Below, piece after piece: positions 4,088-39,114 of a DNA stretch of 64,000 nt. This stretch comes from Emiliania huxleyi CCMP1516 (lineage: Eukaryota). The DNA is taken from contig NW_005201092.1 of NCBI RefSeq assembly GCF_000372725.1, positions 55,683 through 119,682 of the forward strand, given 5' to 3'. Position 1 is the stretch's first letter; every line of letters begins with the position of its first letter. The position numbers and the translations under genes were made by a program. Under the pieces are notes generated by a model. That model saw only the letters and a list, made by a program, of their open reading frames with translations, was not told the origin of the DNA and searched no databases.

Positions 4088-7000
4088 ATGGCGCCGATGG
4101 AGGTTGAGACGGTGGCGACAGTCGGTGCGCGCAAGTGGTCGCCCGGCTCGTGGCGCAGCTGCGAGACGCTGCAGATGGCCACGTACGAGGACAGCCAGGA
4201 CTCGTACGCGGCGACGATGGACAAGCTCTCCAAGGTTCCGCCGCTCGTGCAGCCCGGCGAGGTGGATGCGCTGCGGGAGCAGCTCGCGGCGGCCGCTCGC
4301 GGCGAGAAGTTCATCGTGCAGGGCGGCGACTGCGCCGAGCGTTTCATGGACTGCACCGCCGACTACCTCGAGGCCCAGCTCAAGCTGATCGTGCAGATGG
4401 GCGCGCTGATGGAGAGCGCGACCGGCATGCCGACGGTGAGGGTGGCGCGGATGGCGGGGCAGTACGGGAAGCCGCGCTCGTCGCCGGTGGAGAAGCACGC
4501 CTCCTTCGGCGAGATCAAGTCGTACAAGGGCGAGAACATCAACGGCTACGCGCCGACCGACCGCGCCTGGGACCCGGACCGGCTGCTGCAGGGGCGAGAT
4601 ATAGCCGAGATAGCCGAGAGATTTAGCCGAGCTGTGGGCGCCACTCTCCAGCTCTGGCAGATCGGAGGCGAGACACCGCCGAGAGATGAGATCTAGCCGA
4701 CATACGACCGCTGCCCGAGAAGAAGCACCTCGTGTGAGTGTGGACAGCGCCTGTGCACCCCTCAAGATCAATTCCGAATCAAATCGAGGTCGACGCCCCC
4801 TTAGCTGCCCGTCCGCCGAGTTGACAACCGCACCCCGTGGGCAGGTACTGGCACTCGTGCGCCACGCTCAACACGATGCGCGGGCTGCAGATGGCGGACG
4901 ATTTCGGCGCTTCGACGGTGGACAACCCCGGCCAGGGACTGCCTCGGTGGATCCCAGTCTCCGAATCAACCAATGCACTCAACAGGTGGGCGACCTCGAC
5001 GTCGACTTCCTCAAGCCGTCGCCGCACTACGCCGCGTGGAGCAAGGCGGCGGACAAGGCGAAGGCGGCCGCGGCGGCCACCAAGCCTGGCGTCTTCACAG
5101 CGCACGAGGCGAGGGAGATCTGGGGAGATCTGGGGAGATCTGGGGAGATCTCACTCGGTCATGTGGCGGGAGGTATGGGGAGATCTGGGGAGATATGGGG
5201 AGATCTCGCTCGGTCATGTGGCGGGAGATCTGGGGAGATCTGGGGAGATATGGGGAGATCTGCAGCTCGACGACTTTGGGAGGCGGTGCGCGTGTGAGCG
5301 GCGTCTGTTCACACAGTGCTGGCTGTGAACAGGCTATGCAGCTCGACCTCGAGGAGGCGCTGACGCGGCCGGTCGCAGGCGAGGGGCAGCAGATGCCACA
5401 GCCAAGGGGGAGACGTGGGGAGACTGGGGGAGATTTGGGGAGATTTGGGGTCCGGCACTCACAACGCGGCTGCCGGCTCACAGCGCCGCCCTGCCGCCCA
5501 CAGGCAAGGGGCACTACAACCTGTCGGCGCACATGGTCTGGATCGGCGACCGCACGCGCCAGCTGCTCGGCGGGCGCGCGGAGTACTTTCGCGGCATCCG
5601 CAACCCGATCGTCAGGCAAGTCGATGAGCTGTGTTTTGAGCGCGGGGTAGGCACGTCGAGTACTTTCGCGGCATCCGCAACCCGATCGGCGTCAAGGTTG
5701 GGCCGTCGATGCAGCCGCAGGAGGGGACGGAGCTGTGCGCGAGGACAGCACACACACCCACCCACACCCTCCTCCTCACCGCTGCTGTTCTCTGCCGCAG
5801 GAGCTGAAGGAGCTGTGCGCCATCCTCAACCCAGACAAGGTGGAGGGGCGGCGCGGACTAGTCAGTCAGTCAGTCAGTCAGTCTTACACACCTCCAAGCA
5901 TGGAGGACGGGCCCACACGCACACACACGCTGCACACGATTGGCTCGGGAGCCGACACGAGGCACACTGACTAGTGGATGGCCAAACGGGTGAGTGACTG
6001 ACTTGCGGTCCTCGCCCCGGACAAGGTGGAGGGGCGGCTGGTGCTCATCACCCGCTACGGCGCCGAGAAGGTCGCCGCGCTGCTTCCCGCCCACATCAAG
6101 GCGGTGCAGGAGAGCGGCGTGCCGGTCGTCTGGCAGTGCGACGGCGTGCACGGCAACACGGTCGAGACGAAGCCGAGATCTAGCCGAGATCTAGCCGAGA
6201 TCTAGCCGAGAGCTAGCCGAGAGCTAGCCGAGAGATAGCCGAGAGATAGCCGAGAGCTAGCCGAGAGCTGCCGAGATCTAGCCGAGATCTAGCCGAGAGA
6301 CGTGCACGGCAACACGGTGTCCTCCGACACATCTTCCTACGACACCTCCTTCCTCCTAGACATCTTCCTACGACACCTCCTTCCTCCTAGACATCTTCCT
6401 ACGACACTACCTGGACACTTCCTAGACGCCACGACCACAGCGTCGTGCGAGCTCAAGAGCGCGCAACAGCTCAATGAGTCATCACCTCATCACGCGCGGT
6501 GGGCTGCAGGTCACAGCGTCGTGCAAGCTCAAGACGCGCAAGTTCGACGACGTGATGGCCGAGGTGTCGCGCGCGCTACAGGTGCGAGATCACCCGAGAT
6601 CCGCCGAGATCACCCGAGAGTCGCCGAGATCCGCCGGGAGTCGCCGAGATCCGCCGAGATCCGCCGAGATCCGCCGAGAGTCGCCGCGAGTCGCCGAGAT
6701 TCGACGCTGTGGTATGGCCGAGGTGTGCCAGCACGGGGGCGCCGCGCCGCGAGAGCGGCTCCACTCTCGTCTAATCTCGTCCAATCTCGTCCAATCTCGG
6801 CGAATCTCCTCAGGTGCACCGCGAGAGCGGCTCGACGCTCGCGGGAGTCCATCTGGAGATGACGGGCCAAGCCGCGGTGACCGAATGCACGGGCGGCGTC
6901 GTCAACATCGAGGAGCTTCGCCCCCCCGCCGCCGCTCCTGCCGCCACCATCCCTGCCTCCCGACTCGCGCCTCCCGTGTGCTCCTCCGCTTGACGCGTGT

Positions 7001-8669: not shown

Positions 8670-9536
8670 ATGCTGCCGACGGTGCCGTCAAAACGTCCAA
8701 TGCTGCCGACGGTGCCGGCGTCAGGCACACGCGCCGCGCTGCTGCTGGGCTGCACGTCGCTGCTTTGCCTGCTCGCGCTGCTCGCACACGAGAAGCCTGC
8801 TGAATCAGCTGCTGACGTCTGCGCCAATGTTCCGCGCGTGCCAGCTGCGCCACTGAAGCACCTCTCACAGCAGGAGGCTGCCGATGTGGACGCAGCGCTC
8901 ATGCCGACTCCTGGCCTGAGCGTCGAGAGCCTCATGGAGCTCAGTGGCCTCGCGGTCGCGCACGCAGTACTCGCTATCTACCCACCGAATGCATACCCAA
9001 ACGTGCTCGCGGTCCTCGGTCCTGGCGGTAACGGCGGAGATGGCATGGTAACCGCTCGGCACCTTGCCAGCCTCGGATATTCGGTCAGCGCCTACTACCC
9101 GAAGCGAAACGGCGGCGCGCTCTACGTGGGCCTCGCCGCATCGCTCGAGCAGATGGGTGTCCGCTTCGTCGACGCGCTCCCGCCGCCCTCGCGCACCACC
9201 GTCGTCGTCGACGCGGTGTTCGGCTTCAGCTTCCGGCCGCCGCTGCGAGCGCCGTTTGGCGAGGTGCTCTCGAGCATGAGCGCCTTCCCGCACATTGTCG
9301 CCGTCGACGTGCCGTCGGGCTGGGACGTGGACGCGGGCCCGCCAAAGACTGGAGGCGGAGCTGAACTGCGGCCGTCGGTCCTCGTCTCGCTCACTGCGCC
9401 CAAGCGCTGTGCGTCGGCCTTTGACGGCACGGCGCACTTTCTGGGTAAGGTGCTCATGCCGCCGGAGGTGGGCGAGGCGCACGGGCTGCTGCCACAAACG
9501 GCCTGGGGAAGTAGCCAGGTCGTGCGGTTGGTTTAG
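8670..9536 (+). CDS. NAXE: NAD(P)H-hydrate epimerase (YjeF_N family) with hydrophobic N-terminal targeting sequence; intronless
   Basis: LMELSGLAVA, GPGGNGGDG, VDAVFGFSF, AVDVPSGWDV, LVSLTAPK; a 30-bp tandem duplication gives ATGs at 8670 and 8700. Confidence 0.92.
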   Translation: MLPTVPSKRPMLPTVPASGTRAALLLGCTSLLCLLALLAHEKPAESAADVCANVPRVPAAPLKHLSQQEAADVDAALMPTPGLSVESLMELSGLAVAHAVLAIYPPNAYPNVLAVLGPGGNGGDGMVTARHLASLGYSVSAYYPKRNGGALYVGLAASLEQMGVRFVDALPPPSRTTVVVDAVFGFSFRPPLRAPFGEVLSSMSAFPHIVAVDVPSGWDVDAGPPKTGGGAELRPSVLVSLTAPKRCASAFDGTAHFLGKVLMPPEVGEAHGLLPQTAWGSSQVVRLV

Positions 9537-11431: not shown

Positions 11432-12571
11432 TCACACCATGATACCACCACGCGAATCGGCCGGAAGCGAATCGAGTAGCCTGCTCGCTGCGCCATTGCT
11501 CGGCTGCACCTTCAGCAGGGCACGCAGGTCGGCACGCGCTCTGCTGGCGTCCCCGTCGCCGTCGCGGCTCGCGTGTGCGCTCGCGCGGCGGTAGAGCGCC
11601 TTTGCGTGCGTGGGCACGGCCTCCAGGACGGCGGTGGCGGTCTCGATGGCGGCGTCCCAGTCGCCGAGTTTGAGGGCGGCCTGGGCGGCGTTGGCGCGCA
11701 GGTCGGTGAGCAGCGCGTCGGTCGTGCCCACCATGTGCGCCGAGCAGAGCACCCGCGCATGCTCGAGCGCGCAGAGCGCGCCCTCGCCCTCGAGATACCT
11801 CTCGAGTGCCGCGCGCGGCTGGCCATCGGACAGCAGTCGGTTCCCCTGGGCCTTGAGCTCGGCGGCCTGGGCGAGGCGCGCGTTGAGCGTCGCCTGCAGC
11901 GACGAGCGCTTCCGGCCGAGCTCCTCATCCAGCTCGACCTCCTCGGTGTCCTTGACATAGTCGGTGCACTGCAGCGCCGCGGTGCCGCCCCCCGCCCGGA
12001 GGGTCACGCCGATGCTGTCCTCGCTCTTGCCCTCGTTTTCGACCGCCGCGAGCGCGCCCGCCTCGTCGAAGCGGTCCCATGCACGGTACGCGTCGCGGAG
12101 GACGCTGGAGCCGCCCGCGCTGCGGTCGAGGGCGGGGAGGCGTCGCGGCTGCGGTGGTGGTGCGGTGGCAGACGAGGCCGGCCTTGAGGGCGCGGACGCG
12201 CCGGTCGCGGCTGGCGCTGTGCCAGGCGTGGTGGTCGCCGTCGTCTGGCGGATCGGGATCCGCCACTCGCACTGCTGCGCCTTGCGCAGCGTGAGGTGCA
12301 GAGATCCGTCCACGAGTTCCCACTCGCTCTCTTCCGGTGCAATTGTGCCGCCGAGCGGCCCATCGAGGAGGATGCGGCCGTGGCAACGCACGCACAGCGT
12401 CGTGGGCAGCATGCGCACGAGCAGGTCGCGCCCGCGCACGCCCGCTCCGACGCTGAAGAAGAAGCTGGCCGTGTCTGTTTCCTGCGCCCACTCGAAGTCG
12501 TCGAGCCCGGGAACGTCGAAGGGCTGGCGTGCCTGGTGCACCGTAATGGCGTCGAGGTTGTGGTGTGACAT
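11432..12571 (-). CDS. CS (p23/NudC-like) domain plus TPR co-chaperone; intronless
   Basis: FEWAQ...LLDGPLGGTIAPEESEWELVDGSLHLTLRK (CS domain); YRAWDRFD; ELKAQGN...NAAQAALKLGDW...KALYRRA (carboxylate-clamp TPR). Confidence 0.85.
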   Translation of the reverse strand: MSHHNLDAITVHQARQPFDVPGLDDFEWAQETDTASFFFSVGAGVRGRDLLVRMLPTTLCVRCHGRILLDGPLGGTIAPEESEWELVDGSLHLTLRKAQQCEWRIPIRQTTATTTPGTAPAATGASAPSRPASSATAPPPQPRRLPALDRSAGGSSVLRDAYRAWDRFDEAGALAAVENEGKSEDSIGVTLRAGGGTAALQCTDYVKDTEEVELDEELGRKRSSLQATLNARLAQAAELKAQGNRLLSDGQPRAALERYLEGEGALCALEHARVLCSAHMVGTTDALLTDLRANAAQAALKLGDWDAAIETATAVLEAVPTHAKALYRRASAHASRDGDGDASRARADLRALLKVQPSNGAASRLLDSLPADSRGGIMV

Positions 12572-17183: not shown

Positions 17184-19858
17184 CTAACTCGCACATCGAA
17201 CGCGACGTCTGAGCCGAGGCGCTTCGCCCGCCCCCGTCTCGCGGGCGCCCTCTCTCATCGCCTCCTCCTCCGGTGCCGCCGCGGGGCCGGTGAAGACCGC
17301 GTTCGCTGCCGCAGAGCCGAGGGCGTTGACGGACGCCGCCAGGCGCAGCGCGTCCGCCGCGACGTCCGCCATCAGAGGCCTGACGCGCGAAGCAGCGGCG
17401 TGCGAGGGGGCTGAGAGAGGGAAAAGGCACACACGGGCTCGGAGAGAGGGCCGCGGCGCGATGGAGGCTTGAGAGCTCGCCTGCTCGCGGGCTGCAGCTG
17501 CAAGCAGCTCCGGATGAGGTCCGCGAATGCCGCGCGGTCCGGGAGAAGGCTGGTGGCGGGGCGGAGGTCATGGAGGCTGCTGCCCGCCTCGTACTCGTCC
17601 ACGTCGCGAGGGTGCCTGGCAGGGAAGATGAGGGGAGGGCGCTCTCTGACGGCAGCAGAAGCCGGGGGGCGTCCGATCTCAGCAGTGCCTCTCGGCTATG
17701 CGCGTCGCCTCTGGTGCATGAGGGACCAGAGCAGCATCCCGTACGAGTAGACGTCGCACTGCTCGTTGTAGGCGGACCGCTGGACCAGCGAGGAGGAGGA
17801 GCGCACCTCGGGCGCCTGCTCACGGCCGTCTATGTGAAGAGGCGCTCGGCTGGGGTGGGAGGGGGGCGAGGGTGCGGTGGCCATGAAGTATCGGGTTCCG
17901 ATGCCGGCCGTGTGGCCTGGCGAGGGAGGCGAGGCCGAGGAGGCGGTGGCGGTGGAGGCGGAGGAGGAGGGCGAGGCCCGCGAAGAGGTCTTGTCGATGA
18001 GCGCCGCGATGCCAAAGTCGGCCACCTTGGCGTGCGCCGACCCATCGAGGAGCACGTTGGAGGGCTTGATGTCGCGGTGCATCACGTTGTTGCGGTGGAG
18101 GAAGGCGATGCCGGCCGCAACCTCGCTGGCGATGCGGCCGGCGAGGCAGGCGGGGAGAGGCTGCGGCTGCTCGAGCAGGGCGGCGAGGGTGGACGGCAGG
18201 AGCTCGAGGAGCAGCGCGCTCGAGCCGTCGGGCAGCAGAGTGTGGCCGTAGAGGGCGCAGACCGACGGGTGGCGGAGCCGCGAGAGGAAGCTCGCCTCTT
18301 TGCGCAGCTCGTGGTTCGCGCGCAAGTGTCGCGGCACCTTGACCGCCACCGGCACGCCGAGCCACCGGCCAGAGTAGACTGCCGCCTGGCCTCCCTGGCC
18401 AATCAGCCGGACGATGGTCACCTGCGGGCAGGGTCATCTGCTCAGATCCAGCCGAGATCCAGCGGCGATATCCAGCGGCAGGGCGGGTGCGGACACCTCG
18501 CTGGCCGATATCTCGGCGTGCCCCCCGGCGTCGCCCTCTGGCGCAGTAGCGAAGAGAGCTGCGATTAGATGCGCCCTGCGCGCGCCCGACTCGAGCGCGT
18601 GTCCAATCGTCTCGCCGAGCAGCAGAGCCCCCACCAGGCACGCGGGCTCTGCAGGGCGGCCGAGCTCGGAAAAGGTTGGTTGGGCAGCGACTCCCGCGCC
18701 GAAGACAACAAGGTCGAGGAGGCGGTGGGAGTAGTGGAAGCCAGCGTAACGTAGGTAGATGGGGAACACGCACCACGTCACGGCCATAGCAGGAACAAAC
18801 GCAGCCGAGCTCAGCTCGGGGGGGTGGACATGCCGCCATGGAATGTAGCACATCCACCCAAAGGTAACCATGCCGACACACGCACGCCCAAAGAGCAGCC
18901 GGGCGCGAAGCTGGTCGGCGTGCCGGTGCATCAAGACTCGGGCGCCGAGGATGATGCTCAAGCAAGCGACGAGGACGGCGTTCTCTGCGAGAGAGGCGGG
19001 GTAGGCCACCGCCAACAACCAAGCGCTCGCACCGAAGAAGAGCACCAGCGGCACGTACGTCGCGACAAACCTGTCGCTTATGTACTGCGCCTCGAGGTCC
19101 GCGTCCGCAAACTCGAGCGTCCAAGGGTGCAGCGCGGCGGACGGTGGTGCGGCGGGCGACGGTGGGAACGTGGCACTGGCGACGGTGGCGGCGGCTGGCG
19201 GGGCGTTGATGTGCTTCAGATGGGCGAGGCGCAGGCGACGCTCGATCAGATAGCCCACCGCCTCGCCAAGCAGCAGAGCCCCCACCAGACACGCGGGCTC
19301 CGCAGGGCGGCCGAGTACGGAGAACGTTGGGAGCGCAGCAAATGCCACGCAACAGACGGCGGAGTAGAGGAGGCGGTGGGAGGTGTAGACGGCGATGTGG
19401 CGTAGGTAGATGGGGGCCAAGAACCACATCACGGCCAGAACGAAGACAACCGCAGCCGAGCTCAACGCAGGGGGATGAGCATGCAGCCAGTTGATCAAGC
19501 ACATTGTAGTGCCTGTCACCACACAGACACACACACGCCCAAAGAGCAGCCGGGCGCGAAGCTGATCAACGTCGCGGTGTGTCCAGACGCGGGCGCAAAG
19601 GACGATGCTCACGCCAGAGGCGATGATAGCGTTTAGCTCGAGAGAGGCGGGGTAGGCCACCACCGTCAGCACGAGGGCAACCGTCGCTGCGCCGCAGAAG
19701 AGCACCAGCGGCACGTACGTCGCGACAAATCTGTCGCTCACGTACTGCGCCTCGAGATCCACGTCCACAAACTCCAAGGCCCAAGGGTGCAACGCGGCGG
19801 GCGGTGGCGTGGCGGCAACGGCCGGCACATGCAAGAGACGCTGGTGCAGAGACGCCAT
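17184..19858 (-). CDS. Multi-pass membrane protein (two duplicated ~6-TM cassettes) fused to a TKL-type protein kinase
   Basis: ALHPWxLEFxDxDLEAQYxSDRFVATYVPLVLF occurs twice, each followed by hydrophobic helices; GQGGQAAVY, VAVK, HRDIKPSNVLL, DFG, GTRYFM|APE, CDVYSYG; about 4 short introns. Confidence 0.85.
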
Positions 19859-22261: not shown

Positions 22262-24780
22262 TCAGGTGCCGGGGACGAGCGACGGTGCGATGGCGAGCGA
22301 TCCCCGCTCGATGAGGCTCCACACCGCCTCCTCGAGCTCCCCCCGCGACCGCAGCGACTCGATGGTCCGGATGAGCTCGTCGGCGCCGCAGCAGCCGAGG
22401 GCTCGGCTCGAACCGAGCGCGCCTAGAAAGAAACACGGGCGGCGCGTATTTCATGTTTTTAGTCGTTGGCCGACGGCGCGGCTCGAGCCGAGCGCGCCCT
22501 TGAGGCGGTGCAGCCACTTCCACAGCTCGCACCTACAGGAGGGAGTACCGCACCCTATTCCTGCTGTTCCTCGAAGGTGGCGCAGCCACTTCCGCAGCCC
22601 GCACCACGGCGCACTGGCGCGCTCCGCGCCGATCAGCGCCACCAGCCGCCGCAGCTCCGCCGCCGCCGCCGCTCGCATCTCGTCCTCATCGTCCAGCTGC
22701 GCGCTGTCGGCGGCGCTGCGCGCCGGCGCACCCTTGCGCGTCACCGCCTCGCACCCAAAGCGGGTGACCCACGTGCGCAGCACGGTGCGCCGGTCCGGCT
22801 CTGACGGCGCCTGAGACGCGGAGATGACTCCGAGATCAAGCTGCGATGCTAGCCGGGCTGGCCGACGGCGCCTCGAGCCCGAGATCGGCCGAGGGTACCC
22901 CGAGATGGCCCCGACGCTTCTTCCGAAGACTCTCGTCGAGTTTAGCCAAAGGCATCGAGGGGCGCCGAGATGACTCCGAGGTGACTCCGAGGTGACTCCG
23001 AGGTGACTCCGAGGTGACTCCGGGGCTCGCAGAGTGCGCGCCTTGCTGAGGAAGCCATGCGTGCGCTCGTTGTAGAGGGCGACGTCGGACTCGGAGTCGT
23101 TCGCCGAGCGGACGAGCACGAGCGTGCGCGCCTACCACACCACCAAAGCACCTGAACCCACGCTGGATTCGGTACTCTGGAGGTATGGCGCGCGCCTCCT
23201 CGCTCGGCGGCATTCGGTTGAGCGCCGTCCGCGCGGCGTACGACCCCGAGACGGTCTCGGACGAGGGGAAGGCCAAGTCCAGGTTCTCGTCGACGATGAG
23301 GAGGAGGCGGCCGTCCGGGGGCAGCGCCTCGACCGCGGCGACGATCGTGTCCGCCGCGCCCTTCACCTCCTCATCCGTCGTGCCGATCAGCGTGGTGCTC
23401 TCCTCCGGGATGCCGAGCGACGCGAAGACGGCCTGACTCAAGACGTGGCCGTCCGCGCTTTCCGGCTCAATGCATGAACGAGCTCCTCCGGAATGCCGAG
23501 GGGAGGGAGAGGGGGGGGGGAGAGAAGGGCCACCCGAGCTTCCCCGAGCTTCCCCGAGCTTCCCCGAGCTTCCCCGAGCTTCCCCGAGCTTCCCCGAGCT
23601 TCCCCGAGCTTCCCCGAAATTAGGCGAGCTTCCCCGAGCTTCCCCGAGATTAGGCGAGATTCCCCGAGATTGGGCGAGATTCCCCGAGATTGGGCGAGGC
23701 TAGGCCTCGAGACAGACGAGCTGGAACTCGCAGTCGTCGATCGCGAGCGCCGTCACGCCGGCAGAGAGGTCGGCCTCGTCGAGGAAGGACTCCTAATGAC
23801 TCGAGGAGGGGGGGGGGGGGGGGCGATCCTGAGCTGATGTTTCGTTAGGGGAGGCTCGGCCCCTCGAGGGGAAGGGGCGCCTCCAGCCGCTGCGGCGCCG
23901 GGCAGCGGAACTCGAACACCGTCTCCGCCTCGCGGAAGGCGATGGAGCACTCGCCGAGCATGCACTCGGCGCACTTGGCCATCACCCAGCCGCCGTCCCC
24001 CTTGGAAACCCGCGCGGTCGCGATCGCCTCGTCCGACGGCAGTCAAAAGTCAGCACCGGGTCCCAGGGAAGGCGAATGCGATGGCGGCCTCTAGTGCGAG
24101 CTCTCGACTAGTGACCGCCGGTGTCGCCACACCGCAGGCACACGTCTAGGAAGTGTCTAGGAAGTGTCGTCACACCTCGTCCGACGACACGCGGTGCAGC
24201 CTATGGGGAGAGATGGGGAGAGATGGGGAGAGATGGGGAGATCGCCTCGTCCGACGACACGCGGTGCAGCCTCGTCCCCTTTGCGAATACCGACGCCGGG
24301 TCCAGACCCCGCACGCTCTCGTGCTGCTCGCCCGGCTCGTTGACGACTCGGATGGTGAGCTGGTCGCCCGCAAGGACCACCTACACAAGAGGCGCAGGTG
24401 TGGCTCTTCTTGGCAGTCCGGGTCGTGAGCTGGTCGCCCGCAAGGACCACCTCGGTCGCGACGACGCTTCATTCATGCACGAGTTCACTAAGCGGTGCTA
24501 TGAACTAGTGCGTGACTCGACGCCTCCGTCGCGACGACGCCGCCGTGGCGGCCGTACTTGCAGGCGTTGGAGAGGGCGTTGCGGTGGACGAGGCAGAGCA
24601 GACGCTGGTCGATGTCGACCACGGGGAGCGGCGAGGGGTGCGTGGTGAGCGGGAACCGCTCGTTGATCTGCCAGGCGAGGCCGAGCGCCTGCGGCTCTCG
24701 CGACGCACCCATTCATCGGGTGCACACTGGCTGGTGTGGCCTCGTGGTGCATTCATTAAGAGAGGGCATTCATCGGCTGG

Positions 24781-24843
<63 letters not shown>

Positions 24844-27574
24844 AACGACTGGTTGGCCTCGTGGTGCATTCATTCTCATCAAGCCGTGCACTCATTGGCG
24901 GGTTGGCGAGGGCCGGGCGCCTGAGCTCGATCTCAATCCACTAACTATTAACTCATCCATCGATCAGTTGGCGAACTAACGGGCCGGGCGCCTGCTCGAT
25001 CTTGCACGGCGCCGTGCGCGGCAGGTAGTTGCCGTGGAGCACGTCCCGCGCCAGGGCCTAGAAGGCTCCCAGAAGGTTCCGAGAAGGTTCGTAGAAGGTG
25101 TGGAGCACGTCCCGCGCCAGGGCCTGCGAGAGCACCGTCTCGAGCGTGTGCGTCAGCCCCGACCTACCACACCACCAACGCACCTGAACCCACACTGGAT
25201 TCGGTACTCTGGAGGTATGGCGCGTCAGCCCCGACCGCATCGACGCCAGGGAGCCTACGTGCTGAGTACGCCGACATGAGGGCGGGAAGACGGAAGTGTG
25301 TGCAGCGTCTTCAGAGCACCGCGTGAGTACAACGGATAGGAGTACAGTGAGTCAGCGGAATACGGATGAATACAGCTGAACACGTGGCCCTCTCGGGCGC
25401 TAGACGGGGTACAAGAACACGTATTCCGCTTCTAGGCTTGCGAGCGGTGGAAGGTGGCGCCGGCCTCGAGGCCGACCTGAGTAGGCATGAGGAACGAGGT
25501 GTGGCGGAGAGAGGGAGGAGGCTGACCGTGCGCCGCATCTCGGCGGCATCTCTCGGCCATGCCTCCCCACATCTCCCCACATCTCCCCCTATCTCGCGAC
25601 CTTGCGCCGCATCTCGGCCGAGATCGAGTCGAGCTGCGACAGCGCGGCGAGCACGCCGTTCTTGACCTCGTGCCGTGAGAAGCGGTTCGCCTCCTCGTCC
25701 TTCTGCCGCTCCACCGCCGCCGCGGTCGCCTCGCGCTCTAGCTGCGCGAGCCTACTCACTGCTCACGACCTGCTCACGACCTGCTCACGACCTGCTCATG
25801 AACTGCTCAGGAGTTGCTATGAGCTGCTAACTACAAGTAAGGCGGCGCTCTAGCTGCACGAGCCGTTCCTTCTCGGTCACGTCCCGGACGATGATCACGC
25901 ACGAGCCCGCCTAATTAACTAATTAACTAATTAACTAATTAACGTCCCGAACGATGATCACGCACGAGCCCGCCTCGTCCGAGAGCGCAGAGGAGACGTC
26001 GCAGACGGCGGCGCGGGCAGCACCCCCTCCGCCTCCCCCTCCGCCTCCGCCTTCGCCTCCGCCGCCGCCGCCGCCTCCGCCTCCGCCTCCGCCTCCGCCC
26101 CGGACGATGCGGCACGTGAAGCGCGAGTGCCACCACGCCGCCTCGACGAGGCGCGTGAACTCGAGCTCGTCGGCGTGTGTCGGCAGCGGCGGCGCGCCGC
26201 CACTCCACAGATGCCGCTCGAGCTCGCCTGCAAACAGGCTCCGAGGAGTTCGGCCTTCAGGCTGCCTCTCGGGCTGCCTCTCGGGCTGCCTCTCGGCTGC
26301 ATCTCGGCTGCCTCTCGGCTGCCTCTCGGCTGCCGCTCGGCTGCCTCTCGGCAAGCTCTCGGCGGTCTCTCGGCTGTCTCTCGGCTGCCTCTCGGCGGTC
26401 TCTCGGCTCCGAGCTCGCCCGGCTCTCCGTGCTGTCGGCCCGCCACCCACCTCCCCGCCTCGTGGCGCTGCAGCAGGTTGGCGACGCTCGGCGACGCGGT
26501 CGAAGAGAGCGACCCGTCACGCAGCCGCCGCGACACGACGATGACGTCGGCGGCGCCGCGCCACACAAAGTCCATCCGCTCGGCCGCCTCGCGGCCGCGC
26601 TCGAGGCCGTGCAGCAGCGGCGCTGCCGTGGCGCCTTCCTCGATGGCGGAGGCGTACAGCTGCTTGGCAAGCACGTCGATCGCGGCGTCGGCGACGAAGC
26701 CGACGTCCACCTCGGATGCGACGCCGAGCAGACGCGCGAGCGCGTCGCCGCACCAGACGGCGACCAGCAGCGACCAACAGACGACGCACTGGCGCATGAG
26801 CGACGCGGCGAGGCGCGCCTTGGCGAGCTGGTACGAGTCCGCCTTGCACTGCTCCGACAGCGCGCGCAGCCGCGCCTCGCGCTCGAACAGCCGCAGCACG
26901 ATGCACGAGAAGAGGAGGAAGGAGGCGACCAGAGTGACCGCCCAGGCGGCGCCCCCGCCGGCGAGTGGGAGCAGCAGGCCGCACAGTGTGGAGAGGGCCT
27001 GCGAGGTGGCCGTGATGAGCGGCGTGCGGAGGCGCGTCGCGTCCGTCGCGTCCACCACGAAGGTCATCAGCCCCGCGAGCACGACCCACTCCCCCCACCG
27101 CAGCATGCAGTTTGGCCGGCCCGTGACGGCGTCGACGACAAACGGCGTCGGGAGGAGGTAGAGGGCGAGGTTGGTCGCCGCGGCGCAGAGCTTGACAGCA
27201 ACGATGCAGCGAGACGTCCAGCGCATCGAGGGCAGCGGCCTGCGCGTCAGCTGCTCCAGCGCGGAGCCCGTTTGCACCGTGAAGGCGAGCAAGACGGCGT
27301 TCGACTCGACGGCGCCGAGCCGCACGCAGGCGGCGGAGGGGAGCCAGGCGACGAGCGCGGCGTCGATGAGGGCGAGCAGCGTGATGGAGCCGCCGATGAG
27401 AGCCATACCCACCCGCCCGTCATTCAGGAGGTACGCACTCTCCTGCTCGACGTCGACGGCAGGCGGAGCGCTCGACGCGGCGGCGCCGCTGCCGTCCTTG
27501 TCGCCGTTTCGTTGCGACGAGGCGCTGGCGACGGCCTCCGCCACGAAGGCGGAGCTCGAGGGCGCCTCGCACAT
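22262..27574 (-). CDS. Histidine-kinase rhodopsin: 8-TM microbial rhodopsin - PAS - HisKA - HATPase - REC - HPt (more than 12 exons)
   Basis: Helix C LRWGEW (27086-27103); helix G IDVLAKQLY (Lys 26663-26665); PAS/PAC end IIVRDVTEK; H-box SRHEVKNG (His 25670-25672); N-box HRNALSNACKYG (about 24551-24590); SKGDGGW (about 23985-24005); REC AIDD, IVDENL (Asp 23289-23291), RSAN, GFLSK; HPt WLHRLKG (His 22508-22510); TGA at 22262-22264. Confidence 0.85.
24781..24844. repeat. (TAAA)n microsatellite in an intron of the rhodopsin-kinase gene
   Basis: Perfect tetranucleotide run. Confidence 0.95.
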
Positions 27575-29044
27575 CAGCCAGGTGGCGCCGCGGGCGCAGC
27601 GACGCTGGTTGGAAAACGGCAGCCACGACAGGCCACGAAAGAGTTCGACGACGGGGAAATTTCCGGGAGGGGTGCCCGAGAAAGAAGAAATTTGCTCAGC
27701 CCCGCGAGGGCCGCGAGGCACCATCCCTCCCTTGGGTTGTCTGTTTTATTTCTTTCTTTCTTTCGGCGAGGCACTTTGCACTCAACCGCCCACGCCGCAG
27801 GCAAGCTCTTTGACCATCTGCTCTCGGGAGAGCAAGTTGGGGGGTTTGAGAGAGATTTTTAGCAATACCAAACAACTCTAACACTCACACGTCATTTGGG
27901 GCCTGGAGCCCTGTTCACGCGCGCGCGAGACGTGCAGACAGGGTCGCCAGGTGAGAGCGAATGGCGCGGTTCACGCCTCGCACAACAGAGAGAGAGATGC
28001 GCTCTGCATGGTGGGACATAAAAGAAAGCGAGTACTGTTTTGGGGTTTGTTGTTGTCATAGAAGGGTACTATACATTATAAAGACACCACAACTTCACCG
28101 TCACCCAAGTGCACCAAAATCAACCGATCTAGATACATCTGAAGCAGCATGTTTCACATCTCTCTTGTCTCTGTTGGCTGGCAGCACTGGATGACTGACT
28201 AGCGTGGTTTGCAAACACAACACTTGGCTGAATGACTGCGGTGCATGCGCCTTGGCGCTGAGCATGCCTGCGCTCATTGCTTTCACGCTGCGAGTCGCCG
28301 ACACACGCTGCACTGCGGATGAGGACCTCTTGCCTCTGAGGACCTCTTGAAGGATGAGGACCTTTTCGTCGTCTGCGGCTCGATGAGGCACGTCGATCCA
28401 TCGTTTCAAAAACCCAGAGAGGGCAAACACCTGCTACCCCGTGCACCGCCAGAATCAGAACACATGACAAGCCGCCGAGGGCGAGACAGAGAGATAGAGC
28501 GCAAGATCCAAGAAGGTCCTCACTCGCAGGTGTAAAAGGTCCTCACGGATGCGGAGGTCCTCACGCAGTCCTCATACACGAGGCGGTCAGGACCTCCCCA
28601 CGAGCATATGGTAGAGCTCGATCCGGACCCCCCCCCCCCCCCTTCTACACTGTATTTGGTGACCCAAACTCACTCCGACCTGACTCCGTTTGTGGTGCCT
28701 GTGCCTGGCAGAATCTATTTTCCCATGAAATCCCATGTAGAGGCAAGATATGGTGTGTTGATAGTGCTGGTTGCAACGCGGTAGCCCTTGTTGTTAATTA
28801 ACCATGTGTTTAGTCGGTAAAGGGTGTCAGTGATGTCTTTGCTAAGACCCTCTCCGCACCATTCGTGGGGCTCCTGCCCGCGTGTGTCCGGGTGTGGAGA
28901 TGCAAGTGGGATTCGCACGCGGCCCTCTCAGACAGCATGTCTCCACTCGTCCTCATGCTCCTCGCTCGGCCGGGCAGCGGCACGGGTGGTAAGGTGTCGT
29001 GCTAGTGCCTGGTGTCTACTAGCCCCGAGTAGAGGGGGCGCTCC

Positions 29045-29875: not shown

Positions 29876-30763
29876 TCAGAGCTCCGCCTTGGCTGCTCCC
29901 GTCGTTGGCGAGGCGACGCAGCGCTGCAACTGCGCCGCCAGCTGCTCGACGCTCGCCTCTGTCGGTCGGCTCGTCGCACACTTGGACCAAGTCGCGCCGC
30001 CGTCGGGCGTCGTGTAGAAAGCGGGCGCCGACAGCTTCAGCTTCTCCGCCACAGCATCCTTTGTGTATCCGCCCTTCACGAATCTCGAATCCGCTGTCAG
30101 CGCAAACGCCGCCGGTGCGTCGTCCCCCGCCTTGGCGGCGGAGCGCGCCGCCGCCTTGAAGGCGGAGAAGAGCTTCGCGGTCTTGGTGGGCTGGCGGAGC
30201 ACTGCGAGAGCGCGCGGCGCTCCCGCCTGCCAGGACGCGTAGTCGTCCACGCCAGCCAGCTCTGTGAATGGAGGCGGGCCGCGCTCCGCAGGCTTGCCTG
30301 GACCCTCAATCTTGAGAATCTCCATGGTGAAGATGAGGCAGTCGCCGGCGCCGATGTCGCCACCCTGGCCGCTGTCGCCGTATGCGAGCTCGGAGGGGAT
30401 GTAGAGCTCCCACTTGTCGCCGGCCACCATGAGCTGCATGGCCTCTGTCCAGCCCGCGATCACGCCCGACGGCGCGAAGGAGGTCGGATCGCCGCGCGAG
30501 TACGAGCTGTCAAAGGTCTTGCCCTTGGGCGACTTTGAGTACTCTTGGGCCGTCCTTCCCTCATAGTGGCAGGAGCACTGCGTGTCCTTCAGCGGGTGCT
30601 CCTCGCCGTCGCCCTCGCGGAGGACCTTGTAGAGCAGGCCAGACGGCAGCGAAACGACGCCCTCCTCGGCGGCCTTCTTGGCGAGGAACTGGCGGCCAAA
30701 CTCGTTGGTGCCAGCGAGCACAAGCGGGGCGATGGTGGAGAGGAAGAGGGCGCGTAGAAGCAT
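29876..30763 (-). CDS. FKBP-type peptidyl-prolyl isomerase (Mip-like) with signal peptide, C-terminal extension and KDEL-like KAEL; intronless
   Basis: LPSGLLYKVL, HYEG, FDSSY.RG, VIAGWTEAMQLM, ELYIPSELAYG; N-terminal hydrophobic leader; ends AKAEL. Confidence 0.92.
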   Translation of the reverse strand: MLLRALFLSTIAPLVLAGTNEFGRQFLAKKAAEEGVVSLPSGLLYKVLREGDGEEHPLKDTQCSCHYEGRTAQEYSKSPKGKTFDSSYSRGDPTSFAPSGVIAGWTEAMQLMVAGDKWELYIPSELAYGDSGQGGDIGAGDCLIFTMEILKIEGPGKPAERGPPPFTELAGVDDYASWQAGAPRALAVLRQPTKTAKLFSAFKAAARSAAKAGDDAPAAFALTADSRFVKGGYTKDAVAEKLKLSAPAFYTTPDGGATWSKCATSRPTEASVEQLAAQLQRCVASPTTGAAKAEL

Positions 30764-31780: not shown

Positions 31781-33701
31781 TCTGGGTCGAGCGAGCGAGG
31801 ACAGACACGTCCCCACCTTTGCAGGATTTTTGGAAGGGCGAGGGGGAGGGGGCGCATCGCGGCGTGGAGAGGGCTGGGCACAGGGCACAGGTGAAGGGGC
31901 AACTCCGTGCTGCACTGACGGTCGGCCGTCAGAAAGAAACACGCCTCCGTGGCTCGGGTTACACCAATCCTCGCTACCCAACGCGGCCAAAGGATATCCA
32001 CCTCGAGAACCTCGAGAACAGGTAATGTGAGTGAGTGAGTATTCTTGATACGAAACCACGACGACACACACCAGTCGACTCGCATCGGTTGCCTCCATGA
32101 ACGGCGGAGCTATTCTCGCGCCCACACCACACCTGGCTCCAACGTGGACACGCCCATAGCTGGGGACACTACTAGGTCACGCATGGCACAGAAGTTTTAT
32201 CTCTGGGCCCCGAAAGGCATCTCTAGCCGCGTCGTTACACATGCCCCCTCCCCTCCTGGGCGCATGCGCCTCACGTCTCGCCAGAGCATAAGCCCTTGGC
32301 GTGTGGCGAGACGAGTTTTTCGCCATGCAGCGAGCAGCCAGCCGCCCGCCGCAAACAGCCGGAGGCCTCGCCGCGGCACTGGCTGCGCCGCGGTCCCGCA
32401 CCCGTCGACGCAGCTCCCCCCGCGGAAGACCGCGCGTAGCGACGCCTTGACGATCGAGATGAGCGTGCCTGAAGCTCGCCCACCTACTGCCCCTGAGAGT
32501 TGGTTATGAGTGGGATCAGCTCCCCCCCTTGGGATCGAAGCCGCCACAACCTCACACCCAACATCGCAGGCGGGATCAGAAGGAGACTCCGCACCGGACA
32601 CCGCCCGGGCACAGACCCCCTACCCGTCGGATTGCACAGGGCCCCCTCGGAGCAGCCCACACACAATCACGCATCGGCAGAATTAGTGCCTGAGTCAGGC
32701 AGACAGCACAGACAAAGGAGAGGAGACAGCACAGACAAGGAGAGGAGAGAGAGAGGAGAGGAGAGAGAGAGAGAGAGAGGAGAGGGGAGAGGGTGAGGGT
32801 GTGTGCACACGTGTGGAGCAGGGAGGGTGTCTGTGGTGGGCTGTAGTCATACTACGTGGTTAGAACCACGCGCCCCTCAGGAGCTAAGGTAGAGCTGAGC
32901 GTCCAAGACGCCTCGGTGCCTCCCACCGGCGTGTGACCATCCGGATCTATCGAGCTCGCCTCCGGCGGGCCGTCCCCGCGATGGCCCACGGTCCTCCGTC
33001 GCCTGGTTGACCCCCTGCCTCCCAGTTGACCCCCAGTCCTCGTAGTCGACCATTAAATAAACTCAAAGGTCCACCACAGCCTCCAGCCTCCACCTCCACC
33101 CGCGAGCCGCCACCGCTGCCGCCCGCGACGCCGCCCGCCGCGTCAGATTGCCGCGACGCGCGCACCGAGTCGAGTCGGAGAGCCGCGCCGCACCAGCAGC
33201 AGCATCTGCACCACCACCAGCAGCAGCAGCAGCAGCATCACCACCAGAGAGAGAAGCGCACCTGCCCGACGCCGCCCGCCGCGTCATATGCTCGCGACGC
33301 GCGCGTCGAGCCCAGTCGCAGAGCCGCGCCGCGCCAGCAGCAGCATCTCCACCAGCAGCAGCACCATCACCACCACCAGCAGCAACAGAGAGATGCAGTG
33401 CAGGCGCAGGAGCGCTCGCAGAGCGGCGCTCAGGGCCGCGCACGCCACGCTGCGGACCGTCGGACGAGCGCAGCGTACGTCGGCGGCGAGCCGCGTCGCC
33501 AGCCGTCTCGCGAGAGAGCGGCGCCGCCGCGTGCGCGCAGCAGCCGCCGCAGCAGAGGCGAGCCGCGGCGACGTCCGCACAACCGATAACTGCCATTGGC
33601 GGTTTTACACACACACACACACAACAGGTAATGCCAAAAGGAAGGATTTTTATTATCTAGATAATCCACCGCATTTGGCCGACGGCAAAAGACAGATCTT
33701 C

Positions 33702-36126
33702 ATGTCGCTCAAGTTGGTCTCGCTTCTGCTCGTCGCGCTGCCGGCGTCTGCCCTTCCGGTGCCCTTTCTCCTCTCGCCCTTTGGCGAACCCGATCCGACG
33801 CTCCCATACTCGTTTGGCGAACCCGATCCGACGCTCCCATACTCACGGCCCTTTGGCGACGCCGATCCGACGCTCCCATACTCGCGGCCGAGCAAGGTGC
33901 CTCACCGCGCGTTGGAGGACTTGGTGCCCAACGGCGGGTTTTGCGGGCTCACGGAGACGTTCGGCGCTGACTGTGAGGGCCAAGTCCACGTCATGCCCGG
34001 CGGCTCCCCTGATTCGGCGACCGTGGTGTGGACAGGTTCGGCCGAACTTGCGTTCGTTACATTGAACTGCCCTTCGTTCGACAGCCCGCGGAAGTTCCGC
34101 TCGCAGCAAGACACGTACTCTCAGCTGATGAACATTCGGGTGACTCACCTGGTCGGAGAGGAAGGAATCGGCGAGCCGACAACGAACCGCGAGTTTCTCG
34201 CGTCGCTTCAAAACACCAACTTCTCGGCGGACGCCTGGGCATCTAAGATGCCGTGGAACCCGTTCCAGCCAGGCCTCTCGGTCGTCGGGGGTAAGTTCCC
34301 CACGGACCCATTCAGGGAGCCGTCGGTGAGCGACGCGAGCACCTACGGCGGCCTCCTCTTGTACAAGATCCAGCGTTCGGTCGGCTCTGTCTCTGGAAGC
34401 TACTACCAGTCGCCCATCATCCACAAGGCAAACGTCAGCGGAATAGAGCCTGGCGAGACGTGCGGGTACACCATCGGCACGATTGACGACAGCTCCACGC
34501 TGGGGTCGACATATTCCTTCCGCCAACCGCCCGCTCCAGGGCGCATGTACCCCTACAAAGTAGGTCTCGTCGCCGACATGGGACAGACTAGCATCTCGGA
34601 GCAGAACATGCAGATCCTCCTCGACTCGCTCGAGAGTGAGGAACACTCGCCCGTAATCATCTTCGGCGGCGACCTGGCATACGCGGACGGCTTTCTCCCC
34701 CGCTGGGACTCGTGGAGCTTCATGATGCAGCCGCTCATGTCCAAGATTCAGGTCATCACGACGGCGGGCAACCACGAGGTGGGCGACGGCGAGCACTTCG
34801 TAAGCTACTTTGCCCGCTTCCCGCAGCCGTTCCGCGAGTCGGGCTCGACCTCACAGCTCTGGTACTCCAAGGAGGTGGGCCCGATGCACGTCGTCAATCT
34901 CTGCTCGTATGCGGCCACCTTCAACGGCTCCTTCCAGTACGACTGGCTCGTCGCGGATTTGGCGTCGGTAAACCGCAGCAAAACGCCATGGCTCATCGCC
35001 AATTTTCACGGCGAGCGCGGTGTTGCACCGCCCCCGCACCCTGCCCCACTACACCCACCGCCCCCTCCCCCGCCCCCGCCCCAACGTTGCAGCTCCTTGG
35101 TACAACTCGAACAAAAAGCACCAGGGCGAGGCCGAGCCCATGCGTCTCGACATGGAGGAGCTGCTCTACGATGCGGGCGTCGACATCGTGATCAACGGCC
35201 ACGTCCATGCCTACGAGCGGTCGGTGCCCGTGTACAACGCTTGCCTGAACGAATGCGCGCCCAACTACGTTGTCATCGGCGACGGTGGCAACTACGAGGG
35301 CGCCAGCACGCAGTGGATCCAGCCGCCGCCGTGGTCAAAGGTGCGCGAGTCGTCTTTCGGTGTTGGGTTCCTCACCATCATCAACGACACGCACGGTGAG
35401 CCCCCACACGCGTAGGTTGCCGCAGTCCCGCCCCTGCCAAGCCATATCCGCTCTTACCTCGCCGGCCGTGCCCCTCGCGCCACAGCCTTTTACAACTGGT
35501 CGCGCTCCGCCTGCCAGTCCAAGGATGCCGACGCCCACTTTGTGGATCTGGACGGAGCAGGCTGTTCAGGGGGGCTCAACAAAGGCTCGACGCAGTTTTC
35601 GTCCGACTCGACCTACTTTGTTCGCGAGGAGCCGAGCATGCGCAAGCCCGAGCATAACCCGTCGTGCCCGGATAAGAAGCGCAAGCCGTGCGGCGGTGCT
35701 GGAGGCCCGGCCTTCCCGCCGTACCCACCGCGGCCGCCGCCATCGCCTCCGACTCCGCCGGCGCTGCCGTCGCCGCCGTCGCCTCCCGATCCTCCAGCAC
35801 CCCCGCCGCCAGTGCAGTGCGGTGACAACCATGGCTGCGCGGAAGGCTCGACCTGCTACTGTGAGTACAAGAACAACTCTCACGGAACCCGCAGCGTGCT
35901 CTTCTCGAGTCTGCCGCCGGATTCGCGCGGATGCTTCTGCTTCCAAGACGAAGCGTCGCCTGACGACGACATGGTTGGTGGCGAGCACGCGTCCCCCCAA
36001 GTGAAGGCCAAGATCAAGAAAATGCGCAACCGGCTCGAAATGTTGATGAAGCACTGCGCCGTAGTGATCCAAGCCGCCGATGCGCAGGGCGCCCCTATCG
36101 CGGAGGTGGACCCTTCTTGCGAGTGA
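33702..36126 (+). CDS. Secreted purple acid phosphatase (FN3 + metallophosphoesterase) with Pro-rich linker and Cys-rich tail; 2 introns
   Basis: Signal peptide; five metal-ligand motifs DMG, GDLAYAD, GNHE, FH|APWY, GHVHAYER; introns at about 35011-35092 (GC-AG) and 35396-35486. Confidence 0.93.
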
Positions 36127-36657: not shown

Positions 36658-39114
36658 GTGTGCGCGTGCCTTGCTTATGCCGACGATGCGCCCCAGTGCC
36701 TGTGGCCGTGGGCTATGCGACAGAGCGAGCTCATCTTCCGACACCTCGCCACCACGTCGCATTCCCCCCCGATCTCGCCACGTGACTTTGCAAATCCAAA
36801 TCTCGAGCCAGCCGAACTTGGATGGGCGCGAGTTCTATTTTGCAACGTCACTGTTTTCATCCCGCTGCGAGACAAGGATAACAAGATCAGCCACACCCAG
36901 GCCGATGCTTGCCACCTTGGATACGACGAGAATCACCACTGCCACTTCGCCTATGTTCCGTCGCTCCGTCGCGTCGGCAGCTACCGCGTCACGTCGTGGT
37001 GCGGAGAAAACAAGTTCACGATCGCGAAGACCATCTCCTGTGACACGCCAATCACATACATGCAGAGTGACTTCCCCTTTGGCCGCGCCACCGGTGCCTT
37101 CCTGCCCAAGCACTTTGTTGCGCGTCGCCCGCCCGCCCGCCCAGCTGGCCTGCCAGACCAGGGGGGAGCAGCTAACGCAGATGGTCCGACAGCCAGCGAC
37201 GGCACCGTAGCCCTTGTACGGCGTTATGCCGCCGTCGGCTGCGCCGCATTTGCCAGTGGGCAACAGACTATTGCCCGCCTCGCAACTGACCGGCTTGCAG
37301 AGATAGCCTACTCAGCCTTCATCGACGACGACAACACCGAGGTCGCATGCGTCTGGAACGACACAGGCTGCAAGCCGCCGCCAATCGAGATAGCGCTTGC
37401 AATCCAGTCCGTCGCTTCACAGACTATGCCCGACATCAAAACAGTCGAACAGGCTCGCCAGTCTATTTACTGGCCTCTCATCAAACGTGCTATGGAGGAT
37501 GAGATTCACGGAAAGTACGTCGTCAACCGAGCGTGGGACGTTGTCCGACAGGAGCCGTGGATGCACGTCATTGGAGTCAAGTGGGTCTTTACCTTTGTCT
37601 TCAATGACGACGGCAGCATCGCCAAGGTCAAGGCTCGTCTCGTTGGGAAAGGCTTTGGACAACGTGAAGGCAAGGAGTACCACGAGTGTTTTGCGCGCAC
37701 TCTGAGCGCAACAGCCTTCCGCCTATGGTGTGCCATAGTCGCTGACGAAGACCTCGAGACTGACACGGCCGACGGCGTCAAGGCGTTTACTCAGGCTGAC
37801 GTCGATGCCGAGATCTACACCCAGATGCCACCCGGGTTCGTCAAGAAGGGCTTTGTGCTCATGCTTCTCAAAGCGCTCGAGGGCATCAAACAGGGCTCCT
37901 ACCTTTGGTTCAAACTCAACCAGGACGCCCTCGTCAAGCTTGGCTGCGTCGCCTCGCTCACCGAGCCAAACTTCTACAGCCACCCAGCCTTTCGCCTAAT
38001 CATCGTTGTTTTTGCAGACGACGTCGCAAACGGCTTTGCCGCTTCCGCCACCGACCAGTACGTCCGGTTCAAAGAGGAATATGGAACGTACATCAAGATT
38101 GCGACGCTCGATATCGTCCCCATCTCCGTCTTCACCGGAATCGAGGTACTCCGCGACCGAGCCAACCGCACGCTCACTATTCGGCAGACCCGGTACATCG
38201 AGCGGATTGCCGCCCTCTACGGCAACGAGATTGGCGCTGGTGCTCAGTCCACCCCAGCCGGCTCGACCGACGTCCAGCGCGCCCTCTTCGATAAGCTCGA
38301 GCCTGCTGCCGAGTGCGACCGCATCCCCGTCACCGAGTTCCTGAAGCCGCTAGGAACCATCGGGTGGCCTGCCGAGATGACGCGCCCCGACATCAAGTAC
38401 TTCTTCTCGAAGCTCGGCTCTTTCTCTCAGGCTTGCGGCGCCGTCCATCGTGACGCCATCATGACCGTCATCAACTATCTCAACGCCACAAAGCACCTCG
38501 GCATCACCTACGGCGGAAAGCTCAAGATCCCCTACGGACTCGACACTTTCCCGCCAGGCTTCATCGAGTCTCGTGGCCTCCACGCCTACCATGACGCCTC
38601 CTTCGGCAAGGCGCCACACTACGGCGGATGCGTCGTGATGTTCAACAACGGCGCCATCGACTGGAGCGCCAACAAGTCCAAGATCGAGGCTCTCAGCGTC
38701 GCCGAAGAGGAGACCGCCACCGCCTCCGTAGCCGCCAAGAAAGTCGTCTCCTGCCGGCTCATGCTCGAGGACGCTGGCCGAGCTGTCGCAGGCCCCACGC
38801 CCCAGCTCGGTGACTGCAAAGCCGTCTTTGACATCATCGTCAAGCCCGGCTCTACTGCTCGCACGCGCTACTACGAACGTGCCACCACGTTTGTCAAGCG
38901 CCTCTTCATGCTCCGCCACGTCGCGCCGTACCTCGTCGGCACTGCTTATATGATCGCCGACGTCTTCACCAAGACGCAGGCGACGCGAGCTATGTTCTTC
39001 ACCTGTCGCGACTACATGCTCAACGCCAGCAACGGCCCCGGCTTTGCTGTGACGCTCCAGGGGCAGGCTGCCCGGCTGTGGAGCAAGCTCGTCGCGACCG
39101 TCGGCAAGGCGTGA
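36658..39114 (+). mobile_element. Ty1/Copia pol remnant: integrase C-terminus, reverse transcriptase, RNase H (uninterrupted ORF; gag/protease missing)
   Basis: LWPWAM...HLGY; KWVF...KARLVGKGFGQ; LEGIKQG; VFADD; TRPDI; AYHDASF, EEE, GDCKA, ADVFTK; INT-RT-RH order. Confidence 0.95.

Follow-up and report, generated by a model that had tools for sequence, protein, structure and literature searches.

Within a stretch of 64,000 nucleotides from Emiliania huxleyi CCMP1516 (contig NW_005201092.1, positions 55,683 to 119,682 of the forward strand; the whole stretch is called the window below) we find a minus-strand gene of 17 exons for a predicted protein of 1008 amino acids. In this chain an eight-helix domain of the microbial rhodopsin type is followed by a degenerate PAS-like domain, a histidine kinase, a receiver and a C-terminal four-helix bundle, likely a histidine phosphotransfer (HPt) domain. 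We consider it rather probable that the protein is a light-switched rhodopsin-hybrid kinase, in which a relay His513 to Asp814 to His952 leads to a separate regulator. The gene had been proposed in an earlier reading of the bare sequence (the original prediction), the coordinates and strand of which were right: the ATG lies at 27574 and the stop codon ends at 22262. The 17-exon model was built from splice signals, guided by P0003, an unnamed 1062-residue protein encoded in a single frame; exon 5 (31 nucleotides) was set by RNA. The spliced frame of 3027 nucleotides has a single terminal stop.

22262..27574, minus strand: whole gene, 17 exons, 1008 amino acids (open frame, junctions in RNA contigs, collinear with P0003)
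27574-26419, 26227-25974, 25910-25864, 25751-25601, 25476-25446, 25254-25236, minus strand: exons 1-6
25163-25124, 25057-24992, 24688-24524, 24380-24246, 24027-23881, 23792-23706, minus strand: exons 7-12
23432-23196, 23131-23042, 22810-22605, 22532-22498, 22422-22262, minus strand: exons 13-17
27575..27724, minus strand: possible in-frame N-terminal extension (open reading frame 25958-27724; upstream ATG taken by the public model P0004)

The true start may thus be upstream, at 27724, as in the public model, and RNA contigs do extend beyond the ATG at 27574, to 27649. In thirteen public runs 42-47% of the words sampled from the stretch were present; the eight taken for junctions comprise two recorded as RNA-Seq and six guessed to be RNA. 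All 16 junctions were seen in contigs of these runs, singly or paired across a short exon, and the splicing and the open frame are regarded as established. As lower bounds, the junction of intron 1 occurs in at least 4 of 4 runs, introns 2 and 3 together in at least 5 of 8 (intron 3 alone in at least 1), intron 4 and intron 7 each in at least 7 of 8, introns 5 and 6 together in at least 6 of 8 (intron 5 alone in at least 2, intron 6 alone in at least 1), intron 8 in at least 2 of 4, introns 9 and 11 each in at least 8 of 8, intron 10 in at least 1 of 4, introns 12 and 14 each in at least 4 of 4, intron 13 in at least 3 of 4, and introns 15 and 16 together in at least 4 of 4. A read across introns 15 and 16 from run X4 was aligned to a degenerate copy of exon 16 within the intron with four differences, and was taken as exon 16 because these are the differences between exon 16 and its copy. 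Contig depth was not taken as a measure of expression.

This chain has one gap: the alignment of the RNA contigs skips the Gly-coding repeat (26017-26109), so that in the eight runs no contig bridges it and none spans the whole transcript. We nevertheless infer one transcript, as originally predicted, because the junctions chain across all domains, the frame stays open through the repeat, and the relatives P0003, P0015, P0024 and P0168 are each encoded in a single frame. Separate genes are rejected on the same grounds, and a pseudogene by the lack of internal stops and the intact catalytic residues. The exon model cannot be a chance assembly, because the unrelated single-frame P0003 aligns with it over 927 columns at 41% identity.

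The public annotation does not split the gene, as had been expected, but holds it as one 855-residue model, labelled hypothetical and incomplete in three places. A search with exon 1 returned EMIHUDRAFT_247181 (E. huxleyi CCMP1516, 578 amino acids, partial) and P0003, and its first cluster includes this model, EMIHUDRAFT_201779 (P0004), the N-terminal part of which is identical to the frame in the window. According to the alignment, P0004 omits the core of the PAS, the exon encoding Ser and Lys of the receiver, and the one encoding His952. Thirteen of the 16 introns have GC and three have GT donors; GC-AG introns form the majority in E. huxleyi according to the part of PMC4028052 available to us, and gene models in this species are poor because of this predominance.

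Domains and the proposed phosphorelay

The order of the domains and their key residues are established as follows.

26633..27412, minus strand: eight-helix microbial-rhodopsin-type domain, residues ~55-314 (Arg159, Glu162, Trp163, Leu166, Trp267, Asp300, Lys304)
26663..26665, minus strand: codon of Lys304, predicted retinal Schiff-base lysine in DxxxK, aligned with the helix-7 lysine of Rh-PDE
25875..26578, minus strand: degenerate PAS-like domain, residues ~333-482, with a Gly-rich insertion coded at 26017-26109 (strand/helix order in the model)
25124..25874, minus strand: signalling helix and DHp, His513 codon 25672-25670 in RHEVKN
23881..25057, minus strand: HATPase domain with N box, G1 (Asn657), F box and G2 SxGDGxW (Pfam HATPase_c in relatives, YycG/9M08 alignment, Foldseek)
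22790..23792, minus strand: receiver with Asp756, Asp757, Asp814 (predicted phosphoacceptor), Ser854 and Lys875 (five-strand alpha/beta order in the model)
22262..22672, minus strand: C-terminal four-helix domain, likely HPt, His952 codon 22510-22508 in LHRLKG

The motifs named in the original prediction all lie in the spliced frame: RWGEW (27100-27086), DVLAK (26677-26663), HEVKN (25672-25658), NALSNACKY (24580-24554), SKGDGGW (24006-23986), DD (23738-23733), the receiver residues Asp814 (23291-23289), Ser854 (23107-23105) and Lys875 (23044-23042), and WLHRLKG from 22516. A cyclase effector is missing, as had been stated, since the frame ends ~130 residues past the receiver and none is present in 41 long relatives.

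Taking type Ib enzyme rhodopsins and two-component systems as models, we infer retinal binding and isomerisation, transmission to the DHp, kinase activity, the HPt step and a partner. Retinal on Lys304 would isomerise, helix 7 and the helical linker would shift, and the PAS spacer would pass this shift to the coiled coil of the DHp in a dimer, where autophosphorylation of His513 would change. The phosphate would then move from His513 to Asp814, to His952 and to a separate response regulator; by eye, none was recognised among the long open reading frames of the window. Sign and colour are not readable from the sequence. By analogy with the 2c-Cyclops, the kinase of which is active in darkness, green light inhibiting it (PMC6284317, in the part available), the default would be a dark-active kinase that blue-green light inhibits.

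Several points weigh against this reading and are given below with the domain they concern. Common to all domains is that the support is computational and that the structure was predicted for the 41% identical relative P0003 and not for the protein of the window itself (a single-sequence model of P0003, with a predicted local distance difference test score of 42, was unusable).

The membrane domain shows the seven-helix core of the bacteriorhodopsin fold, the DxxxK lysine (Lys304, Asp300) and the helix-3 carboxylate (Glu162) of type 1 rhodopsins, and in the P0003 model an eighth, N-terminal helix (TM0) as in type Ib, both termini being predicted by topology to be cytoplasmic. The alignment to Rh-PDE begins at model residue 29-32, TM0 included. 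The eight helices and a deviating helix C had been missed in the original prediction. Conservation was followed in 152 aligned sequences; a membrane-profile search had given 380 clusters (50% identity, E ≤0.001), of which the best 150 were considered. The helix-7 Lys occurs in 133 of the 137 rows with a residue there, and this Lys, the Arg, the two carboxylates and the two Trp of the pocket are near-invariant at ~25% identity, while the motif EL[LMVIF] is found in TM3 in 119 of 152 rows. In the Atlas 29 of 30 feature matches are PF01036 clusters, a weak lead. From its sequence the domain likely binds retinal at Lys304.

Could the fold have lost its retinal, so that it senses a different signal at the membrane or is a mere anchor? 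The Thr position of Rh-PDE in helix C is Leu in 128 of 152 rows, and where type 1 rhodopsins typically have the helix-F proline, 114 of 143 rows have Val. The suggested Pfam check also failed: Bac_rhodopsin (PF01036) matched neither exon 1 nor 128 relatives (P0001-P0003 at E 5, 41 relatives at E 0.1, 87 at E 0.01; the scan covered 128 of the 149 new membrane-profile relatives), and the lysine is lost in 6 of 80 further long relatives, among them some diatom members. We hold such a loss of light sensing to be quite unlikely, given the near-invariant residues listed above; moreover HKR2 lacks both usual carboxylates and yet senses green light (PMC8815786, as far as available).

In the P0003 model the helix after helix 7 leads into the PAS-like domain, which is split by the Gly run. 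The PAS assignment stands in part: the PAS topology is predicted and the C-terminal strands match the Pfam-positive PAS2 of P0080, a Prymnesium sp. protein (hhalign probability 83.8, E 7.8e-6, 29 columns), but the domain is degenerate and interrupted, and Pfam finds no PAS in P0003 or in the incomplete P0004. The rhodopsin fold with its Schiff-base lysine, the kinase and the receiver are supported, the kinase part of the model matching the HK853, CusS and ShkA cores. Rhodopsin and kinase matches filled the whole-chain fold searches, which thus do not cover the PAS, receiver and C-terminal bundle. Asp814 is kept in 46 and Lys875 in 43 of the 48 rows with a residue, and Pfam finds Response_reg in P0080 (E 1.5e-4). 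The rhodopsin is fused to a DHp-CA kinase and a receiver with His513, Asn629, Asp814 and Lys875, as in a histidine kinase rhodopsin (HKR).

The direction of phosphate flow can be questioned from the kinase itself. Its G1 and G2 boxes are atypical, Asn657 replacing the usual G1 Asp (Asn in 50 of 52 rows; the solved kinase 9M08 likewise has Asn), and the residue at H+4 is Asn in 69 of 81 rows, as in phosphatase-competent HisKA kinases. ArcB-type proteins run in reverse. The photoreceptor might accordingly act mainly as a phosphate sink or phosphatase under light control, with phosphate flowing from the regulator over His952 to Asp814 in a relay fed by other kinases. This we find very unlikely, as the N box is canonical (Asn629; Asn in 52 of 55 rows) and the glycines of G2 are kept (51 of 51 and 50 of 52), as expected for ATP binding, and an H+4 Asn is also common in active kinases.

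The HPt is the weakest of the domain assignments and is likely rather than established, because it has neither a significant match in sequence nor support from a fold search of its own. What stands of the original claim are four predicted helices in the last 85 residues of the P0003 model, with LHRLKG in the second, and a conserved His: it is found in 29 of 37 aligned rows and in 72 of 80 further long relatives, together with the Lys and Gly of HxxKG, in an otherwise variable domain. A C-terminal four-helix bundle with His952-x-x-Lys-Gly corresponds to the ArcB type. P0080 has a Pfam Hpt match (E 1.1e-5) at the same place in an order PAS, HATPase, Response_reg, Hpt, and 25 of 30 Atlas matches to the C-terminal domain are Hpt clusters, although the Atlas Hpt match has only 126 of 256 features in common. 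On the other side, Pfam finds no Hpt in the exons of the window or in close relatives, and hhalign of the C-terminal profile with two Pfam-positive HPt domains is not significant (probability <1%), aligning just the HxxKG word at the level of shuffles. The His is replaced in 8 of 37 rows, and P0126 retains a bundle without kinase, receiver or His. These points would suit a light-gated hybrid kinase (His to Asp) in which the bundle serves for docking or regulation and the phosphate passes to a separate HPt. Against the retained His, the Hpt of P0080 and the Atlas matches we judge this unlikely, and the complete relay within one chain is preferred.

Relatives in haptophytes and diatoms

The search for the same architecture, as originally suggested, revealed a large family in haptophytes and diatoms which had not been foreseen. 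Conservation across it is established: 36 rows (the one of the window included, two being incomplete) span all four key columns, and in 28 of them the Lys, the two His and the Asp are all retained. When the part of one member from the kinase to the C-terminus was used as query, 334 proteins matched, the best 120 of which included 106 new ones. Among the 80 of these with at least 950 amino acids 78 match the membrane profile, 74 keep the lysine, and at least 54 keep all four residues, 16 rows having alignment gaps. Named members come from the haptophytes Chrysotila, Prymnesium and Rebecca and from the diatoms Seminavis, Cylindrotheca, Thalassiosira, Skeletonema, Cyclostephanos and Ditylum; their labels are hypothetical or uncharacterised, or name a histidine kinase in generic terms. 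Among the cluster members is one assigned to the ciliate Strombidinopsis, possibly from its prey.

A tree of 50 membrane domains without outgroup separates, with support 100/99, 18 rows that include the window and the named haptophytes from 32 rows that include Seminavis and Cylindrotheca. When the membrane alignment was used for pattern scans, 11 stretches in prokaryote genomes and 33 in viral contigs came up, none of them confirmed; the scans are insensitive and do not prove absence. Domain shuffling occurs within the family: P0013 has an N-terminal Hpt ahead of the rhodopsin, P0126 (Rebecca sp.) is reduced to rhodopsin, PAS and bundle, P0080 has two PAS domains, and P0159 carries a piece of a cyclic-nucleotide phosphodiesterase before the rhodopsin (E 1.8e-13) which may be a fused neighbour.

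We tentatively suggest, at less than even confidence, that these proteins form an undescribed clade of enzyme rhodopsins in haptophytes and, widely distributed, in centric and pennate diatoms, whose rhodopsin was fused to a full His-Asp-His relay independently of the green-algal HKRs. If so, two dominant phytoplankton groups would have a hidden light input, invisible to Pfam-based photoreceptor surveys, and the unusual EL-type helix C may give new photochemistry.

Introns and neighbouring reading frames

The 5' ends of the 16 introns (22423-26418) copy the start of the downstream spliced mRNA, with copies of up to 39 nucleotides. At intron positions 3-12 there are 105 matches in 160, compared to 54.5 +/- 5.2 in 7383 permuted pairings, none of which reached 105. 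This copying suggests intron gain with duplication of exon sequence. Judged by literature listings, nothing is plainly on exon-copying intron ends in E. huxleyi. Introns 9 and 10 have internal copies of 26-29 nucleotides at their own junctions.

23132..23195, minus strand: intron 13, body in common with intron 6 (25235-25164), including a 27-nucleotide word

After differing duplicated starts, introns 6 and 13 have nearly the same body of ~58 nucleotides, like an introner element. The window contains exactly two occurrences of their 27-nucleotide word, where chance would give 0, and loose ends of RNA contigs at 25184-25220 suggest copies of the body in other genes. Retention of intron 15 (22604-22533) or intron 6 leaves the frame open; that of intron 15 would insert a second, degenerate version of the helix preceding His952.

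By eye, further open reading frames of the window resemble a class II DAHP synthase (3917-4696, plus strand), a YjeF-type epimerase (8670-9536, plus), a CS/TPR protein (11432-12571, minus), an FKBP-type isomerase (29876-30763, minus), a purple acid phosphatase (33288-35399, plus) and a Ty1/copia reverse transcriptase with RNase H (36715-39114, plus, 799 amino acids). Also by eye, a hydrophobic frame of 474 amino acids (18434-19858, minus), made of two near-duplicate membrane units, lies directly upstream of kinase-like sequence near 17570-18839.

Comparison with known systems

For the membrane domain, the closest solved structure and PDB sequence is Rh-PDE of Salpingoeca rosetta (PDB 7CJ3, 7D7Q). 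It has eight helices, Glu, Asp and Lys in the same places and a helical linker after helix 7; the identity is 16%, and it differs in having a phosphodiesterase effector and Thr in helix C where the family has Leu.

The order PAS, kinase, receiver and HPt in one chain is that of BvgS. ArcB and fusions of Physarum and the oomycete Albugo also have it (PMC6324907, as far as available). The fusion of kinase, receiver and HPt was already known in some eukaryotes. All these proteins lack a rhodopsin input, and the bundle of E. huxleyi is too diverged for a significant HPt match.

As to the original claim of an uncharacterised architecture, no haptophyte or diatom rhodopsin-kinase and no rhodopsin-PAS-kinase-receiver-HPt chain is described in the available parts of PMC8017926, PMC13436692, PMC12704426, bioRxiv 2026.09.29.755320, PMC6798134, PMC4028052, PMC6284317, PMC9601134, PMC7644710, PMC8815786, PMC12558739 and PMC6324907; subscription reviews, most supplements and the sequence sets of PMC8017926 and PMC9601134 lie outside this set and could hold members. 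In these parts HKRs are placed in green algae only (PMC12558739, PMC12704426, PMC6284317, PMC8815786), an open-ocean survey has no rhodopsin-histidine kinase transcripts (PMC8017926), and the main text of Bulzu 2022 (PMC9601134) mentions neither histidine kinase nor haptophytes nor diatoms. For E. huxleyi, the kinases XP_005765999, XP_005776763 and YP_277392 appear in a eukaryote-wide census, but the protein of this gene, XP_005786594, is absent from it (PMC6324907 supplement, in part). The diatom 'ethylene receptor' and CHASE kinases of that paper were rejected as the same proteins, other sensor domains being described for them there.

Should the protein prove to be a photoreceptor, a retinal-based light sensor coupled to two-component signalling has been overlooked in coccolithophores and diatoms, and a cyclase-free light-gated relay in one chain would be a candidate optogenetic part. 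From its sequence the protein would work like an HKR. The green-algal HKRs of Chlamydomonas (HKR1/COP5, Cr2c-Cyclop1), Vc2c-Cyclop1 and Ostreococcus (Ot-HKR) likewise have an eight-helix rhodopsin with a helix-7 lysine, a kinase and a receiver in one chain, and the Mamiellales Rhod-HK is likewise drawn without cyclase (PMC12704426, as far as available). In the 2c-Cyclops the kinase directly follows the opsin and a guanylyl cyclase the receiver (PMC6284317, in part), whereas in E. huxleyi a PAS-like domain, with a spacing of ~200 residues, lies between opsin and kinase and the likely HPt ends the chain; identity with a 2c-Cyclop is ruled out, as there is no C-terminal guanylyl cyclase. In Ostreococcus the HPt is a separate protein (PMC12704426, same part), in E. 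huxleyi the likely HPt is part of the chain. The E. huxleyi family further differs from the green-algal HKRs in its rhodopsin clade, which has EL[LMVIF] and is missed by Pfam Bac_rhodopsin, and in its hosts, which are haptophytes and diatoms.

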